A stretch of 64,000 bases of DNA from positions 4,042-68,041 of the forward strand of contig JAZLBO010000006.1 of assembly GCA_045613765.1 (NCBI GenBank), read 5' to 3'. Below are positions 9,477 through 16,495 of the stretch, piece after piece (the stretch's first letter is position 1; each line of letters starts with the position of its first letter). The notes under the pieces are model-generated. The model searched no databases. It was not told the origin of the DNA and worked only from the letters and a program-made list of their open reading frames with translations. Source of the stretch: Clostridia bacterium. Lineage in GTDB: Bacteria > Bacillota > Clostridia > Christensenellales > CAG-917. The position numbers were made by a program, and so were the translations under genes.

Positions 9477-11759
9477 ATGAGAAAAATAATCAATCTCAAT
9501 GAAAACTGGTTATTTGTCAAAGATACAACAGACATCACTCGCAATGACGGTGTAGCACTCAATCTGCCCCACTCTTGGAACGCAGAAGACGGCTATGACG
9601 GTGGCAACGACTACTTCCGTGGATCATGCCTTTATTCAAAGAAACTTGTCAAGGCAGAACTTCCTGAAAGCGACCTTTACTATCTTGAATTTAGAGGCAC
9701 AAACGCATCAGCAGACGTTTATGTCAACGGCAAGAAACTTGCTCATCACGATGGTGGCTATTCAACATGGCGTGTCAACATCACTGAGGAACTCACTGAT
9801 GAAACAGAAATCGCAGTCCTTGTTGAAAATACAATCAACGAAACAGTTTATCCCCAAATGGCAGACTTCACTTTCTACGGTGGTATTTACCGTGATGTGA
9901 ACCTTGTCTGCGTCAATGATGCTCACTTTGACCTTGACTACTATGGTGCACCTGGAATCCAAATTACGCCTACAGTCAACGGCACAAAGGCATCAGTTGA
10001 AGTGGTTGCTTACGTCAAGAACTTGAAAGACGGTCAATCACTTGCCTACACTCTCTACGATAAGGAAGAAAATGAACTTCAAAAGGTGGAAACAACAGAC
10101 ACAACTGTCACCTTTGAAATTGAAAACGTACATCTCTGGCACGGACGCAAAGACCCCTATCTCTACTGCTGTGAAGTTGAAATAGTGGAAAACGGCCAAG
10201 TTCTTGACAATGTTTGCAGTCGTTTTGGTTGCCGTACATTTGTCATTGACCCCAACAACGGATTTATCCTCAATGGTGAAGAATATCCTCTCCGTGGCGT
10301 ATCACGTCACCAAGACAGAACTGGTGTTGGCAATGCTCTCCTTAAGGAACATCACGAAGAAGACATTGAACTCATTTGTGAAATGGGCGCAACAACAATC
10401 CGTCTTGCACACTATCAACACGATCAATACTTCTATGATCTTTGTGACGAAAAGGGCTTGGTCATCTGGGCAGAAATCCCCTACATTTCAAGACACATGC
10501 CCACAGGCCGTGAAAACACAATCTCACAAATGAAGGAATTGGTTGCTCAAAACTACAACCACCCCAGTATTGTTGTTTGGGGACTTTCAAACGAAATCTC
10601 AATCGCAGGATCAGACGAAGATTTGCTTGAAAACCATCGCATCTTGAACGATCTCGTTCACAGCATGGACAAGACACGTCTTACAACCATTGCAGCAGTT
10701 TCAATGTGCAAGATGGAAGATCCTTATCTCCAAATCCCCGACGTCGTTTCATACAACCACTACTTCGGTTGGTACGGTGGCGAAACATCAATGAACGGCC
10801 CTTGGTTTGACAAATTCCATGCAATGCACCCCAACATCCCTATCGGTTGCTCCGAATATGGTTGCGAAGCATTGAACTGGCACACAAGCGACCCCAGACA
10901 AGGCGACTACACCGAAGAATATCAAGCATACTATCACGAAGAACTCATCAAACAACTTTACACAAGAAAGTATATCTGGGCAACTCACGTATGGAATATG
11001 TTTGACTTTGGCGCAGATGCAAGAGCAGAAGGTGGCGAAAACGGTCAAAACCACAAAGGTCTTGTGACAATGGATAGAAAGTACAAGAAAGACTCTTTCT
11101 ATGCATACAAGGCATGGTTGGTGTCCCCCGAAGTCGATCCTTTTGTACACCTTTGTGGCAAGAGATACGTCGACAGAGTTGAAGACGTGACAAAGGTTAC
11201 AGTGTACTCCAACCTTCCTGAAGTTGAACTTTTCGTCAACGGCGAAAGCCTTGGCAAAAAGACTGCAGATGACCACTTCTTCTACTTTGACGTCCCCAAC
11301 GTTGGCGAAAGCACAATCGTTGCAAAGGCAGGCGAACTCACAGACGAAGGTCACATCCGCAAAGTCGACGAAATGAATATGGATTACGTCCTTGTTGAAA
11401 AGGGTGCAGTGCTCAACTGGTTTGACGTCAATGCTCCTGAAGGCAGATTCTCACTCAACGACAAGATTGCAGACATTATGTCATCTTTCCGTGGCAAACT
11501 TTGGTTCTTGGGTGTCGGTCTTCAAATCAAGAAACAAATGGACGCAAACAAGAAAGGCAAGAAAGGCGAAAAGAACTCCGGTGGATTTGAGGTTGATCTC
11601 AAGGCAGACGGTGGCATCATGCAAATGATGGGCAGCTTTACAGTCCTTCGTTTGACAAGTATGATGGGTATGATGAACATCTCATTTACAAAGGAAGAAC
11701 TCCTTAAGATGAACAAAAAACTCAATCGTATTAGAAAGCCCAAAAACAAGAAAAACTAA
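9477..11759 (+). CDS. Glycoside hydrolase family 2, beta-glucuronidase-like, with a ~150-aa Lys/Met-rich C-terminal extension
   Basis: 760 aa. GH2 catalytic regions WGLSNEIS and CSEYGCEA, NHYFGWYGG, and an N-x-K-G motif (GQNHKGLVTMDRKYKK) matching the glucuronate-recognising NxK of characterised GUS enzymes. Sits in a glucuronate-catabolism neighbourhood. Confidence 0.8.
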   Translation: MRKIINLNENWLFVKDTTDITRNDGVALNLPHSWNAEDGYDGGNDYFRGSCLYSKKLVKAELPESDLYYLEFRGTNASADVYVNGKKLAHHDGGYSTWRVNITEELTDETEIAVLVENTINETVYPQMADFTFYGGIYRDVNLVCVNDAHFDLDYYGAPGIQITPTVNGTKASVEVVAYVKNLKDGQSLAYTLYDKEENELQKVETTDTTVTFEIENVHLWHGRKDPYLYCCEVEIVENGQVLDNVCSRFGCRTFVIDPNNGFILNGEEYPLRGVSRHQDRTGVGNALLKEHHEEDIELICEMGATTIRLAHYQHDQYFYDLCDEKGLVIWAEIPYISRHMPTGRENTISQMKELVAQNYNHPSIVVWGLSNEISIAGSDEDLLENHRILNDLVHSMDKTRLTTIAAVSMCKMEDPYLQIPDVVSYNHYFGWYGGETSMNGPWFDKFHAMHPNIPIGCSEYGCEALNWHTSDPRQGDYTEEYQAYYHEELIKQLYTRKYIWATHVWNMFDFGADARAEGGENGQNHKGLVTMDRKYKKDSFYAYKAWLVSPEVDPFVHLCGKRYVDRVEDVTKVTVYSNLPEVELFVNGESLGKKTADDHFFYFDVPNVGESTIVAKAGELTDEGHIRKVDEMNMDYVLVEKGAVLNWFDVNAPEGRFSLNDKIADIMSSFRGKLWFLGVGLQIKKQMDANKKGKKGEKNSGGFEVDLKADGGIMQMMGSFTVLRLTSMMGMMNISFTKEELLKMNKKLNRIRKPKNKKN

Positions 11760-11805
11760 TCTTCAAAGATAAAACCAATATCTCCATTTTATTTAAGAAA
11801 AAAGC

Positions 11806-11838
11806 AAAAAGCAGACTTTATGGTCTGCTTTTTGTTTT
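11806..11838. terminator. Bidirectional intrinsic terminator
   Basis: AAAAA-GCAGAC-tttatg-GTCTGC-TTTTTGTTTTT, with an A-run and a T-run on either side of the stem. Confidence 0.75.
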
Positions 11839-12133
11839 TGTAAACACTTGCTTTGAGAAAGTTTTATAATCCAATTCAATAGCGCAAAGTGAGTGCGAAC
11901 ATGTCTATTCAGGATCCCCCCCCCTTCCTCATGTGTTTCCCCCCATTTGCCTACGGCAAAGCCCTGCGGGCAGGGGACACACTCGGCACGCGCACATTAG
12001 GGATATTCCTCTCATTATGTCACTTGCCACTTGGGTGGGAAAAATAGGATTCCCAAGTGGCTGGCGTACTTTCGTCTGGTGCTTGGCACTCGCTATGTCG
12101 CCACCCTGTGGCTCCCGTTCCGTCTTCGTATAA

Positions 12134-12408
12134 GTGAGTGCTTGTATAAGTACCCCACGAACTTGCCGTAAAACCCTACTTTTCGGAAGATTCGTGAATC
12201 TCCCCTACAGGGAGTTTATAAATCATCCCACCATTTGGGAAGATGTCATTATCATTTGATTGATGTACAATTTCTTTTTTCGTTGGTATGAGTTTGAGTT
12301 TGGCAGTAGGGGCGATTCACGAATCGCCCGATATAATTACACCAAAATGTGCCATAGGCACAATTCATGCAACGCAGTTGCAATTCATTGCACTATAAGC
12401 ACACTCAC
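12134..12408. repeat. Nested long inverted repeat
   Basis: Inner arms 12185-12208 (GGAAGATTCGTGAATCTCCCCTAC) and 12306-12329 (GTAGGGGCGATTCACGAATCGCCC) pair at 21/24 positions around a 97-nt spacer. Outer arms GTGAGTGCTTGTATA (12134-) and TATAAGCACACTCAC (-12408) pair with a 2-nt bulge. Confidence 0.7.
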
Positions 12409-12615
12409 AAAAAACTGCGATATTTAGATGCATGACGAGAAAGAAAAACCCACACGGGTCGTGGCGTACTTGTCGTACGCGAGAATCGTGTGGGTTGTAT
12501 CTGTAAGGAACGAGGTGACGGAATAGCGCATTGCTACGGTTTACCGTCAATCGCGTCCAAAGTCAGGCGCTAAATAGCGTGAATTTAAGTGGTGGATGTT
12601 TGCAGTCTGCTTTTT
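12399..12615. repeat. Tandem unit A of a paralogous structured element
   Basis: 5' block GCACACTCACAAAAAACTGCGATATTTAGATG; stem CCCACACG (12449-56) / CGTGTGGG (12487-94) enclosing GTACTTGTCGTAC (12466-78); 3' block CGCTAAATAGCG (12568-79); T5 at 12611-15. Confidence 0.6.
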
Positions 12616-12618
12616 AAT

Positions 12619-12754
12619 GCACTCACTAAAAACTGTGATATTTAGATGAAGAACAAGAAAGGCACTTTTAGATCAGTCCGCAGTGTACTTGTCGTACATA
12701 AGGATTGAAATAAAAGTGCCTGCCGAAGTTATTCGCTAAATAGCGCAGTTTTTT
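12619..12754. repeat. Tandem unit B of the same element
   Basis: 5' block GCACTCACTAAAAACTGTGATATTTAGATG; stem GGCACTTTT (12661-69) / AAAAGTGCC (12712-20) enclosing the identical GTACTTGTCGTAC (12685-97); an 18-bp closing stem 12628-45 / 12736-53 (1 mismatch, 1 GU); T6 overlaps the stop codon of the neighbouring gene. Confidence 0.6.
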
Positions 12755-14411
12755 ACACTTCGAAACAACTGCCCCCTACAAACTCACGAAGGATTGAGTT
12801 GCAAGGGATGACGCTTTCATCTTCAAGGGGTTTGAAGTACTTGAGATATTTGATGAGTCTGTTTGCAATGACGTATTGAGGATCGGTGGGTTTGATCTCT
12901 TTGAGTGCAGGCATTGCTTGTTTTCTGAGGACACAGAGTTCATAAAGCAATGATGAGTTGAACACAAAGTTGACGCCTTCTTGATGGGGATAAATCCATC
13001 TAAACTCGCCGTTGCGCACTGACTTCCACATATCAATTGTTGTTGCTGCGCTTGCGCCACGATGTTTCATATCACGGACGATTCTGCGAATAAGACGAAC
13101 GTCTGTGGTTGACAATGGTGCATGGTCATCAATGTTGATTTGTGCTTGTGGTGCAATGAAGATCTTAAACTTTTGATGTTTGGGGATTGATGATGTAAGT
13201 TGCTCGTTGAGTGCGTGTATGCCTTCAATGATGATGGGGCTATCGCTGTCAACTCTGATGGTCTTGCCCGCCTCTCTTTGACCTGTCTTGAAGTTGAAAT
13301 ACGGAAGTGTGACTTCTTCTCCGTTGATAAGGTCATACAAGTCCTTATTGAACTGCTCTACGTCAAGGGTGTTGACGTGTTCAAGGTCTATTTCTGCAAG
13401 GGACACACCTTGGATTTTGCAGATCTCTGCCTTTGGAAGATAATAGTCATCCATTGAGATCATGACGGGCTTGATGCCTCTTGACAACAATTCTATGCGC
13501 AAACGGTTGCAGAAGGTGGTCTTACCACTTGAACTGGGGCCTGCGATACCGATAAGACGGATGTTTTCCTTTTCCTTTTCAATGGCGTTGCCCAATTCTG
13601 AGAGCATGTGGTTGTGACGCGCTTCGCAGAGTTGAACGAAATCTCTGGGATTGCCTTGGATGATCTTTTTGTTGATGCTGACGATTGTCTGCACGCCAAC
13701 CTTCTTTGACCATTGATATGCGTTTTGAAGTGTTTTTCCGTAGGTTGTTTCCTCTTGGAATTCAGGAATTGTTGCTCCCAATTCGTGACGAGGATATTGG
13801 ATGATCATACCGGGGCTATAGGGGGAGATGCGATAGTTTTTGATTGCACCCGTTGATGAAACCATATAGCCGTGCAAATAGTCGCAGTACTCTGCACACT
13901 TGTAAAGGTGGACGGTGGATTCGGGACGGAATTCCAAGATTTCCATTTTGTCGAGATGGCCGAACTTGGTATATACTTCCTTTGCCTCCTCCGTGCTGAC
14001 AACAACACGGTCAATGAAAAGGTCTTCTGCGATAATCTTTTCCACTTCTCTCTTGATGGGCTCAGTGGCTCTTGACATATTAAAGCCGGGGGTCAATGAT
14101 TGGCAGAAGATTGCACGTGATACGTTATAACTGAAACGCACTTGCACGTCAGGGTACAATCTATGGAAAGCCATTGCCACCACAAAGCGAAGGCTGGTTT
14201 CGTATGCCTTTGACGCCTCCTCGTGATCAAGACCAAGGAGTGTGATTTCTTCTCCGTCATTTTTGTTGGTCAGTTGATAGTTGAGTTCCTTGATGACAGA
14301 ACCAACTTTGCAGATGATAAAGTCGTCCTTTTGGTTTTCGGGGATAAGGTCGATGACTCTTTGTCCCTTGTTGACGGCTACCGTTTTGCCGTTGATGATT
14401 ACGTTGAACAT
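12753..14411 (-). CDS. Uridine/nucleoside kinase-family protein with N-terminal TGS and ThrRS-like second additional domain
   Basis: 552 aa. TGS-like start MFNVIINGKTVAVNKGQRVIDLI and the uridine-kinase P-loop IGIAGPSSSGKTTF. AGGGAGAA RBS. Confidence 0.8.
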   Translation of the reverse strand: MFNVIINGKTVAVNKGQRVIDLIPENQKDDFIICKVGSVIKELNYQLTNKNDGEEITLLGLDHEEASKAYETSLRFVVAMAFHRLYPDVQVRFSYNVSRAIFCQSLTPGFNMSRATEPIKREVEKIIAEDLFIDRVVVSTEEAKEVYTKFGHLDKMEILEFRPESTVHLYKCAEYCDYLHGYMVSSTGAIKNYRISPYSPGMIIQYPRHELGATIPEFQEETTYGKTLQNAYQWSKKVGVQTIVSINKKIIQGNPRDFVQLCEARHNHMLSELGNAIEKEKENIRLIGIAGPSSSGKTTFCNRLRIELLSRGIKPVMISMDDYYLPKAEICKIQGVSLAEIDLEHVNTLDVEQFNKDLYDLINGEEVTLPYFNFKTGQREAGKTIRVDSDSPIIIEGIHALNEQLTSSIPKHQKFKIFIAPQAQINIDDHAPLSTTDVRLIRRIVRDMKHRGASAATTIDMWKSVRNGEFRWIYPHQEGVNFVFNSSLLYELCVLRKQAMPALKEIKPTDPQYVIANRLIKYLKYFKPLEDESVIPCNSILREFVGGSCFEV

Positions 14412-14671: not shown

Positions 14672-16495
14672 TTAATATCCCAAAACGTATTCTGCATATT
14701 CTCTTGCATCAATTTCTCTTGCATTATAATAATATTTGTCATAATCTTCAGCAGAGTCTGTATAGTCCAAATATTTCCATGCGCCATATTGATTGTCTGT
14801 GGGCACAACAAGTAGATCGTCCACGCTACATCCGTCCACTGATCCAATCGCAATGCTTTGATAGTAGTGACGGACTTCGTGAATAAGAACGCTGACAATT
14901 CCTCTTGTGTAATATTCTCCTTCAGTCAATTTTTGAATTGTTATGGTTTGTGTCCCCTCTGTATAGAAACCAAAAATGCCTTCTGGCATATTCTCGTCAA
15001 AAATGATGTTTATGCCAACAATAGATTTTGTCAGTTTGTGCAATTCGTTTACCACAATGCCTCTCAAGTTTGTTTCGCTCATATTCAAAATGACATTTTC
15101 TGAGCAACCATAAAAATCTGTTGCTTTCAAATCTGTTCTATCTGCACCAAACGTCACTGTTGCAAATCCACCATAGCCCAAGTATCTAAATGCACCGCGG
15201 GCAAAATTGACGATTGTATCGGGGATGATCAAGTTGCCTGCAAATTGTTCGTTCAAAACGCCAAGTCCTGTGACTTTTCTGCCGTCCACTTCCATTGGGA
15301 TTTCCACGTCATCAAATTGTTCAGCAACAAAATCGTGCAAAGTCAACGTATTATCGTCATTGATTGTGAAATAGAATTGCTTGCCTTTATAAACTGTGCT
15401 AACTTCAAATGTGCGAACAATGAGATACAACGTTGTGGTTTCAGTTACTATAAACTCAAATTCCTCTTGGGTGGAAATGACGTTGCCGTCTTTGTCTTGC
15501 CACTCCTTGAAAATGCCTGTTCTTCCCAAAAGGGTTGTATCCACGTTGACCACTTGATTTTTGTCGCAAATCTTGTGGACTTCTTCAAGGGCAATATCAA
15601 CTTCATTCAATGTGAGAATATATTTATCCCTAATGTCTGCAAAATCAAATGTGACGGTGTCGATCATACATGTTTCTGTTGTAAAACTACTGTATGTATA
15701 GCCAGTGCTATGGGGCAAAAGTTTTACACCTGTTTCTTCCTCGACGTGACCGATCACATATCCACCAATAGGACTTTCTGGGTCGGTTTCTTTGAGAATT
15801 GAGGTGTGTGTGCGCAATGCCAATTTATCGTTCTTGTGAATATGATATGAGAAAGATGGATGTGCTTTGTTTACATAAGGCAAATACTCTATGTCAACAC
15901 CCAAGTTATTTTCCACCTGAATATCAACTGTGATGGGTTGAATCAGCGATTCATCTTGTGTGAAAACTGGAGTGTACTCTTCATCCCACAATGAGACCAG
16001 TGTAACATTGGTGCCAAGAATTGCATCATGTGCTACCGAAATTTGGTTCTGGCTTTCTCTCTTCCAATTAAGAAAATAATAACCCTCATCTGCCACAGGC
16101 TTGATGACAATTACTGGCACATCTGTAACATCGTGGACATAAAAGTCAACGATCTCTGCATGGCCACCTTCTGACTCACCAAATATGTCGGAGAGATCAT
16201 ATACCGTTTCTTCTCCGCAAACTTGACAGAAAGTTGACACCAAACTGATGTCATCGTTTGTGCTCCATCGAATATCATGTTGCAAAATTTCGCCAGAATC
16301 TCTAACCTCTGTTTCATCACAGTTGAAACAGCATCTTATTTCTCTGCCCCTTGCAGTACATGTTGCTTCTTTGATTGTAACCCAATCACTGTAGTTGTGT
16401 TGGCAATTATGATTGCACGCTACAAGCATACACAAGCATGCAAGCATGAGTATGCATATCATTATTGTCATTAAGTTCTTTCTTGCTTTGTTCAT
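14672..16495 (-). CDS. Secreted lipoprotein: Cys-rich CTxxG..CxxC module, Listeria-Bacteroides (InlB B-repeat-like) repeats, a BspA-like LRR segment, and a C-terminal HExxH zincin-like domain
   Basis: 607 aa. Signal plus lipobox MLACLCMLVAC; ATCTARGREIRCCFNCDE; GYYFLNW and GIFKEWQDKDG repeat signatures; HEVRH encoded at 14867-14881 (checked codon by codon), followed by a Tyr/Glu-rich tail. AGGAGAA RBS. Confidence 0.7.
   Translation of the reverse strand: MNKARKNLMTIMICILMLACLCMLVACNHNCQHNYSDWVTIKEATCTARGREIRCCFNCDETEVRDSGEILQHDIRWSTNDDISLVSTFCQVCGEETVYDLSDIFGESEGGHAEIVDFYVHDVTDVPVIVIKPVADEGYYFLNWKRESQNQISVAHDAILGTNVTLVSLWDEEYTPVFTQDESLIQPITVDIQVENNLGVDIEYLPYVNKAHPSFSYHIHKNDKLALRTHTSILKETDPESPIGGYVIGHVEEETGVKLLPHSTGYTYSSFTTETCMIDTVTFDFADIRDKYILTLNEVDIALEEVHKICDKNQVVNVDTTLLGRTGIFKEWQDKDGNVISTQEEFEFIVTETTTLYLIVRTFEVSTVYKGKQFYFTINDDNTLTLHDFVAEQFDDVEIPMEVDGRKVTGLGVLNEQFAGNLIIPDTIVNFARGAFRYLGYGGFATVTFGADRTDLKATDFYGCSENVILNMSETNLRGIVVNELHKLTKSIVGINIIFDENMPEGIFGFYTEGTQTITIQKLTEGEYYTRGIVSVLIHEVRHYYQSIAIGSVDGCSVDDLLVVPTDNQYGAWKYLDYTDSAEDYDKYYYNAREIDAREYAEYVLGY

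Follow-up and report, generated by a model that had tools for sequence, protein, structure and literature searches.

A family of ~125-nt imperfect palindromes abutting stop codons in Christensenella-like Clostridia

Introduction

A 64,000-nt stretch of DNA from a Clostridia bacterium (GenBank assembly GCA_045613765.1, contig JAZLBO010000006.1, positions 4,042 to 68,041; hereafter the window) raises the question of what two tandem, similar units are doing at the very end of a nucleoside kinase gene. The units, A (12411-12579, + strand, family consensus orientation) and B (12629-12752, +), lie in a 993-nt spacer (11760-12752) between two convergent genes, one for a GH2 glycosidase (9477-11759, +) and one for a nucleoside kinase of the PRK family (12753-14411, -). 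They had been picked out in an earlier reading of the letters alone (the sequence-only reading), which implied two local paralogous small RNA (sRNA) genes and compared their shape, speculatively, with that of 6S RNAs.

Here we describe the family to which A and B belong. With a probability of about 0.7, we read the two units as diverged subfamily members of a set of ~125-nt interspersed imperfect palindromes: a mobile hairpin resembling doublets of repetitive extragenic palindromes (REPs), known as REPINs, and transposable elements of the miniature inverted-repeat type (MITEs), co-transcribed as a structure of the 3' untranslated region (3' UTR) that abuts the stop codon.

Results

We searched genome contigs, one genome per species, with a 20-mer from the 5' block of the units (AAAACTGYGATATTTAGATG). 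The search gave 53 loci, 51 of them in Christensenella-like or Clostridia metagenome-assembled genomes (MAGs); these 51 are spread over about 19 MAGs of uncultured gut Clostridia, whose labels read Christensenella sp., Clostridia or Clostridiales. At L016 and L033 the 20-mer is a chance match inside unrelated sequence. Genomes carry several loci each, on up to ~10 contigs, and tandem copies, spaced 118-180 nt apart, form head-to-tail arrays. A covariance model (R1) built on 35 units recognized 88 non-overlapping units in the collected loci and the window, where A and B are the only ones. What had looked like two local sRNA genes is thus the same element at many loci in many genomes, polymorphic between strains. 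The sequence-only reading had itself named ordinary MITE copies as the competing explanation, and MITE-like copies with the inverted termini CTGYGATATTTAG...CTAAATAGCGCAG are indeed present at many loci.

The family unit of ~125 nt consists of a 5' block (AAAACTGCGATATTTAGATGAAGAACAAGAAAG), a variable stem, an apical NTAC-loop-GTAN hairpin, the complementary stem and a 3' block (CTGMCGAAGTTATTCGCTAAATAGCGCAGTTTT); its terminal inverted repeats are AAAACTGYGATATTTAG / CTAAATAGCGCAGTTTT. The 3' block holds a short palindrome, CGCTA-AA-TAGCG, and the 5' block is a degenerate inverted copy. In the window's clade, a box (CGCTAAATAGCGC) stands at both ends of each unit in head-to-tail arrays. At one locus (L014, 5612-5811, -) two units carry a different apical insertion of ~70 nt (CACATTATTATCACGAGC..GCGATGTGGCGGAATTGAGGCAAG..), the middle of which resembles the 5' part of a tRNA.

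Neither the 20-mer nor sequence searches gave any similarity to the family in viral contigs, phages or plasmids. Rfam returned no match at the gathering score over the whole window and no 6S match at E<=10 in 11700-12900, a tRNA/tmRNA search found none, and a full-text literature search for three signature sequences found no paper. The hairpin family is previously undescribed, and Rfam has no model for it.

The most distinctive property of the family is its position. We took a census of open reading frames (ORFs) of at least 60 codons lying next to the 3'-block (TTTT) end of a unit on the opposite strand, for which 44 of the 88 units qualified. In 43 of these 44 the stop codon lies -2 to +4 nt from the end of the 3' block; it is TAA in 42 cases and TAG in one, and only one polarity occurs. 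Read in the gene sense, the modal junction is NNN-TAA-AAACTGCGCTATTTAGCG. The nearest ORF end to the 5'-block end is at least 46 nt away. Most units without an adjoining ORF either lie inside a head-to-tail array or are truncated by the end of a contig. The adjoining genes are unrelated and mostly highly expressed housekeeping genes; their products include ribosomal protein L1 (rplA), GAPDH (gap), GroEL (groL), class II aldolase (fba), PNPase (pnp), FeFe hydrogenase (hydA), rubrerythrin, UMP kinase (PyrH), IMPDH, CorA and the nucleoside kinase. Units at gap, rplA and hydA recur in many species.

Given the fixed position and polarity, each terminal unit must therefore be transcribed as the start of the 3' UTR of the gene upstream. 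The kinase gene of the window follows this rule, and the adjacency of unit B to its stop codon, which the sequence-only reading had remarked upon, proved to be the local instance of it. The TAA (12753-12755, -) is contiguous with the closing helix of unit B and partly paired into it, the T run of unit B overlaps the complement of the TAA, and the array opens the kinase 3' UTR. The transcript of unit A would accordingly be from the - strand, within the same 3' UTR.

Pairing often extends into the stop codon itself. Of 47 units, 31 have at least two stop-codon bases within the helix and 14 have all three. A variant at L037 has lost the A/T tracts, yet GTAAGAAGGC pairs with GCCTTCTTAC across the TAA. 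At two orthologous small-gene loci from two species (L022, 2764-2889, and L043, 5085-5260), the last sense codon is GGT in one and GGC in the other, and the distal flank before the A run reads TTA and CTA, respectively; the second change is complementary to the codon change and extends the helix across the stop. This paired change fits selection on a stop-spanning helix; it also fits a TA duplication of a TAA as against a TAG stop. Neither random insertion nor the function of a symmetric terminator accounts for the zero distance to TAA together with the strict polarity.

The sequence-only reading had proposed, from A and B, that the helices are kept by compensatory change. We examined an alignment (A3) of 60 distinct units and 38 pairs against 500 column shuffles and against controls in which pairing partners were slid. 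Standard pairs fill 96.2% of the cells, compared with 81.6% in column shuffles and 34-44% with partners slid by 1-3 columns. Changes on both sides were seen in 28 of the 38 pairs, and none of the 500 shuffles reached the observed values. The mean minimum free energy (MFE) of the family is about -55 kcal/mol. In the closing stem, GATATTTAG/CTAAATAGC is replaced by GATAAATAG/CTATTTAGC or GCCAAATAG/CTATTTGGC, and CTG/CAG by ATG/CAT; the middle stem also covaries across the family; and the apical hairpin occurs as GTAC..GTAC, ATAC..GTAT, TTAC..GTAA and GTGC..GCAC with a varying loop. Compensatory substitutions keep the fold intact in far more than the two local copies.

The folding strand is a separate matter. 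G.T combinations number 111 against 36 A.C, and two fixed positions supply 79 of the G.T; with these left out, 32 G.T stand against 36 A.C. On the + strand, 59 of the 60 units have a conserved U.G at position 20/125, and 20 have G.U at position 57/88. The + strand folds better by ~8-12 kcal/mol in subfamilies A and B but not in the largest subfamily, where the fold of the - strand is at least as stable. An assignment of strand through wobble pairs was consequently rejected, the G.T excess being confined to two fixed positions and the MFE asymmetry depending on the subfamily. A promoter in the 5' block (TGnGATATT) was likewise rejected, as the block covaries as a helix strand.

Against this background the two units of the window can be described more closely. 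Both stand as the sequence-only reading had recognized them, with their bounds redrawn to those given above. Unit B (subfamily 'B'; covariance model score 124.4 bits, E 4.6e-30) is complete as a hairpin repeat, at 124 nt, and occupies the terminal position in its array. Unit A (subfamily 'A'; 50 bits) is an internal array member without the outer CGCAGTTTT arm, and runs in the order 5' block AAAACTGCGATATTTAGATG, stem AACCCACACG, apical hairpin, stem CGTGTGGGTT, nested insert and 3' block AAAGTCAGGCGCTAAATAGCG. Its alignment to the covariance model is distorted by the nested insert; the insert-free copy in L001 serves as the comparison. Between A and B lies a 49-nt linker or leader (TGAATTTAAGTGGTGGATGTTTGCAGTCTGCTTTTTAATGCACTCACT; 12580-12628, +) that is conserved upstream of units in the window's clade (L013, L030, L036, L038, L039, L041, L044, L048 and L055), and positions 2-295 of L038 can be aligned to window positions 12410-12753.

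The sequence likeness on which the pair had been recognized is real. Identity between the 5' blocks (12402-12443 and 12620-12661) is 86% over 42 nt, that between the 3' blocks (12557-12579 and 12723-12745) is 83% over 23 nt, and the 13-mer GTACTTGTCGTAC occurs in exact copies at 12466-78 and 12685-97 (with up to two mismatches, 5 matches against 0.69 expected). Inverted-repeat searches found the inner helices AACCCACACG/CGTGTGGGTT of unit A and AGGCACTTTT.../...AAAAGTGCCT of unit B, unrelated in sequence and each self-complementary, and closing stems that join the 5' block with the 3' block. Indeed, the units are non-coding, as had been argued: the short ATG-initiated ORFs of A and B read the 13-mer in different frames, have no Shine-Dalgarno sequence and are not conserved across units, and peptide coding was rejected.

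Several structural details had to be revised. The 13-mer, taken for an invariant loop, is in fact an apical mini-hairpin of 4-6 bp (GTAC/GTAC) with a 5-nt loop. It was detected by pattern scan and folding in both units, in A (GTAC-TTGTC-GTAC; 12466-12478, +) also as family helix 3 and in B at 12685-12697 (+). Its invariance holds within the window and fails across the family, because the apical hairpin covaries. In the MFE structure most of the supposed symmetric 15/15-nt internal loop is base-paired (GAAGAAC with GUUAUUC, apart from one G.A mismatch and one bulge), and unit B folds as one long, nearly continuous hairpin (-55.2 kcal/mol, z -7.8, on the + strand; -44.5 kcal/mol, z -5.1, on the - strand). 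The likeness to 6S RNA, which shares the elongated, mostly helical shape, is lost with the large central bubble, which is missing from the MFE structure; the unit also differs from 6S RNA in length (~125 nt versus ~190 nt), in its tens of copies per genome, in lying in 3' UTRs and in having no Rfam match. Finally, what had been taken for a third copy of the 13-mer motif, at 12063-76, belongs to the conserved sequence of another repeat, X, and the covariance model gives no match there.

Kinase orthologues 95-99% identical to that of the window revealed rapid turnover. Their spacers, 310 to 993 nt long, come in four arrangements: a fragment of a third subfamily followed by B, with no X (L069); X, then B (L003, L005 and L070); X, the 5' half of B, then A (L001 and L002); and, in the window, X, a pair of REP-like palindromes, A with its nested insert, then B. 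The order of units is thus reversed between strains, A-B in the window and B-A in L001. No unit is present at kinase orthologues of 91%, 82-84% and 70% identity, which carry ordinary terminators instead. Chimeras occur as well. L055 joins the 5' half of B to the 3' half of A, L001 has a truncated B, and both the junction and the truncation point lie within the apical hairpin. Between genes of one genome, the variable core can be 97% identical (gap/rplA, and gap/groL in another genome), compared with a median of 69% for the same gene in different species and a background of 61% where both gene and genome differ. Closely related strains differ by the gain, loss, truncation and recombination of copies.

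The spacer holds other small repeats besides the two units. Repeat X (11885-12165) is ~270 nt long and rich in C/G tracts, recurs in L012, L013, L018, L024, L044, L050 and L052, and always lies gene-distal to the hairpin arrays, in either orientation. As a candidate structured RNA it was rejected: its sequence is conserved with essentially no covariation, and it has no Rfam match. The C homopolymer tracts in X (11915-11950) vary in length between strains, with 9 C in the window and 6 C in L003 and L001; a conserved reading frame is thereby ruled out, and the tracts appear prone to slippage. GTAG-headed REP-like palindromes (GTAGGGGMGATTCACGAATC...) are found at 12189-12208 (-) and 12306-12325 (+), tail-to-tail and ~97 nt apart. 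They form a REPIN-like doublet within a 448-nt block (12171-12618) that is missing from L003, L070, L069 and L001.

The nested insert of unit A (12504-12558, +) is a mini-palindromic module of 55 nt (TAAGGAACG..GGAATAGCG..CGTCAATCGCGTCC). It is missing from unit A of the 99%-related L001, where it is found inverted inside X; the same unit position is occupied in L025, L026, L030, L040 and L043, and the module lies inside X in L013, L044 and L052. It behaves as a very small mobile insert. The spacer between the GH2 and kinase genes is a hot spot of small-repeat turnover. On its other side, the kinase gene is adjoined by a 607-aa ORF (14672-16495, -) that has no Pfam match and is conserved in L003 and L004.

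Discussion

The elements described here probably belong to a known kind, small mobile palindromes, and it is their positional rule that is unusual. REPINs are ~100-nt hairpins of paired REPs (PMC3116915). With these RAYT-mobilized REPINs and the bacterial interspersed mosaic elements (BIMEs) built of REPs (PMC3116915, PMC3733652), the new family shares extragenic hairpins of ~100-125 nt with inverted palindromic ends, which in the new family may not be REPs in the strict sense, and a more variable spacer, copy numbers in the tens per genome, whether as singlets, clusters or arrays, a hairpin kept by compensatory change, and persistence at the 3' ends of genes. It differs in its ends, (TA)AAAACTGCG, which have neither the GTAG nor the CGTC head tag (PMC3733652), in its conserved parts, which are the two outer blocks and the apical hairpin, and in its host, Clostridia rather than Proteobacteria; no RAYT was identified in the window or the loci.

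Like the new elements, REPs can be stop-proximal, and their known effects are on translation and mRNA decay. In Escherichia coli, ~11% of REPs lie within 15 nt of a stop codon according to the census of PMC12306157, and an earlier study, as cited there, gives 260 of 496. REPs at this distance affect translation, as PMC12306157 reports from its ref. 17, and those with fewer than 16 nt between them and a stop codon stall ribosomes, as the same paper summarizes. The siting of the new family is far stricter, with 43 of 44 units within 4 nt of the stop and a single polarity.

MITE-type repeats such as Correia/NEMIS, RUP, ERIC, BOX, bcr1 of Bacillus cereus and EFAR of Enterococcus faecalis offer a second comparison. 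They are non-coding, 100-170 nt long and conserved in fold, with terminal inverted repeats, and they are dispersed, polymorphic between strains, co-transcribed with flanking genes and found near gene ends; BOX, with its outer modules and variable middle, is modular in the same way as the new family. Our comparison draws on the general literature and on a review (PMC10969869). The new family likewise has terminal inverted repeats and many dispersed copies with presence/absence polymorphism. In contrast to the MITE-type repeats, it has no demonstrated target-site duplication or parent insertion sequence (IS), its element is one continuous helix, its polarity is fixed to the upstream gene, and the stop codon lies partly inside the helix.

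If the mobile-hairpin reading is right, the elements would be non-autonomous selfish DNA of the REPIN/MITE type, whose hairpin would be needed in single-stranded form by a putative enzyme acting in trans. At the RNA level, position and polarity make a 3'-end barrier, or a stop-proximal hairpin as in E. coli REPs, the most economical role. Co-transcription would place the RNA hairpin (-45 to -60 kcal/mol, flanked by A/U tracts) as a barrier at the mRNA 3' end, which might protect against exonucleases, cause partial termination, or both. A terminating ribosome would need to melt the base of the hairpin, the same setting in which stop-proximal REPs of E. coli stall ribosomes.

A number of observations weigh against this reading. 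We found no clean pair of filled and empty sites with conserved flanks, either among further kinase haplotypes or in a metagenome scan with the kinase 3' end, which yielded new haplotypes and unrelated organisms. No target-site duplication was established from the unit flanks; 'TA' precedes the distal A run in about half of the units and may be either a TA duplication or part of the inverted repeat. An 11-nt motif (GTCTGCTTTTT), present at 11823 and again at 12605, was weighed as the duplicated flanks of a 771-nt insertion and rejected, the motif being part of the conserved leader of the clade's units. A limited test, in which 10 window ORFs were compared with Pfam and the window and loci were searched by tblastn with an IS200 TnpA sequence, turned up neither a transposase nor a RAYT in the window or the 385 kb of loci and gave no Y1-transposase similarity; nor was an autonomous IS with the same termini seen in the window or the collected loci. 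Random insertion alone leaves the zero stop distance and the strict polarity unexplained. As to the RNA, G.T and A.C are equally common at variable positions, so that the sequences are silent on which strand folds. A terminator role is doubtful: the U tract is short (4-6 nt, where 4-8 T follow the helix base) and missing in L037, and a separate canonical terminator-like hairpin follows within 300 nt of 24 of 54 arrays, for example 25 nt after the gap units. Whether the unit acts as a simple terminator is thus uncertain.

Other readings must be considered. One is a polar, stop-codon-homing element of a new kind, whose mobilization or retention is coupled to translation termination or to the transcription of highly expressed genes. 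It is hinted at by the 43 of 44 placements, by the overlap of helix and stop in 31 of 47 units, by the pairing across TAA in L037 and by the paired change between L022 and L043, and we regard it as a tentative and rather unlikely option. Under it, the folded single strand might insert into ribosome-free, R-loop-prone DNA starting at the stop codon; alternatively, selection might favor a helix that includes the TAA, with the terminating ribosome gating the folding of a 3'-UTR switch.

Improbable, too, is the view that the units are immobile, host-evolved long bidirectional terminators or 3'-UTR hairpins, homogenized by gene conversion through the 5' and 3' blocks. It draws strength from the A tract, long helix and T tract present on both strands, from the siting at gene ends with enrichment at highly expressed genes and conservation at gap, rplA and hydA, and from chimeric units that break within shared sequence. 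Long-stem terminators have special properties (PMC10325885), and the new units resemble intrinsic bidirectional ones in having an A tract, a GC-clamped base (CUGCG/CGCAG) and a U tract right after the gene. The helix, however, is ~50 bp long instead of 5-15 bp, its internal sequence blocks show conservation, and the element is a repeat. A separate canonical terminator stands behind many arrays, and the L037 variant has no U tract at all. The kinase units are confined to strains of 95-99% identity and distant orthologues have ordinary terminators, hence new loci are colonized, and strict polarity is unexpected for a symmetric bidirectional terminator.

Quite improbable is a third view, in which the units are recombination sites of folded single-stranded DNA, attC-like or recognized at their ends by HUH enzymes, and have no function as RNA; site-specific recombination, at the CGCTAAATAGCGC box or the apical GTAC hairpin, would extend and shuffle the arrays. 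Structure is conserved where sequence varies, down to bulges and mismatches; the clade's head-to-tail arrays have the box at both unit ends; unit order switches between A-B and B-A; break points fall within the apical hairpin; polarity is strict; and GTAG-type REPs in the same spacer suggest HUH/RAYT-type activity in the genome. All of this suits such sites. Against them, no integrase, RAYT or HUH gene was found among the window ORFs or in the limited Pfam and tblastn tests, the ends lack both the attC core sites (R''/R'; RYYYAAC/GTTRRRY) and the GTAG/CGTC tag, and the flanks are housekeeping genes at dispersed loci, not integron cassettes. This view overlaps the mobility half of the mobile-hairpin reading and does not exclude that reading.

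Least probable by our estimate are independent + strand sRNA genes, convergent with the neighboring gene and acting as multi-copy paralogous trans- or cis-antisense regulators in which proteins or targets would be bound by the purine-rich AAGAACAAGAAAG stretch and by the 3' CGCUAAAUAGCG hairpin with its U tail: the + strand's better fold in subfamilies A and B, the conserved U.G and G.U at 20/125 and 57/88, a unit 3' end formed by a small palindrome and then a T run, and a weak promoter-like site at 12243-12271 (+), 140 nt upstream of the window units, speak for them, but there is no conserved promoter, upstream flanks are unrelated outside the window's clade, the 5' block pairs and covaries with the 3' block and so behaves as a helix strand and not as a -10 box, the - strand folds equally well or better in the largest subfamily, no G.U excess is left once the two fixed positions are removed, internal array units have no outer arm, and an sRNA gene has no reason to end at its neighbor's stop in 43 of 44 cases.

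The family adds a strongly covarying repeat, together with a usable covariance model, to a poorly studied, health-associated gut lineage in which small mobile palindromes have hardly been described. In the annotation of MAGs, such units risk being mis-called as sRNA genes or terminators. Their near-absolute placement, in a single polarity, at the TAA of highly expressed genes exceeds in strictness what has been reported for REPs and makes them a natural system in which to study ribosome release, mRNA ends and element targeting. At least four small repeat types are nested in the spacer itself, and its haplotypes differ among 95-99% identical strains, which makes it a useful marker at the strain level. 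Its GTAG-type REPs suggest a RAYT-type system in the lineage, and one more GTAG-headed REP-like copy was seen in L030.

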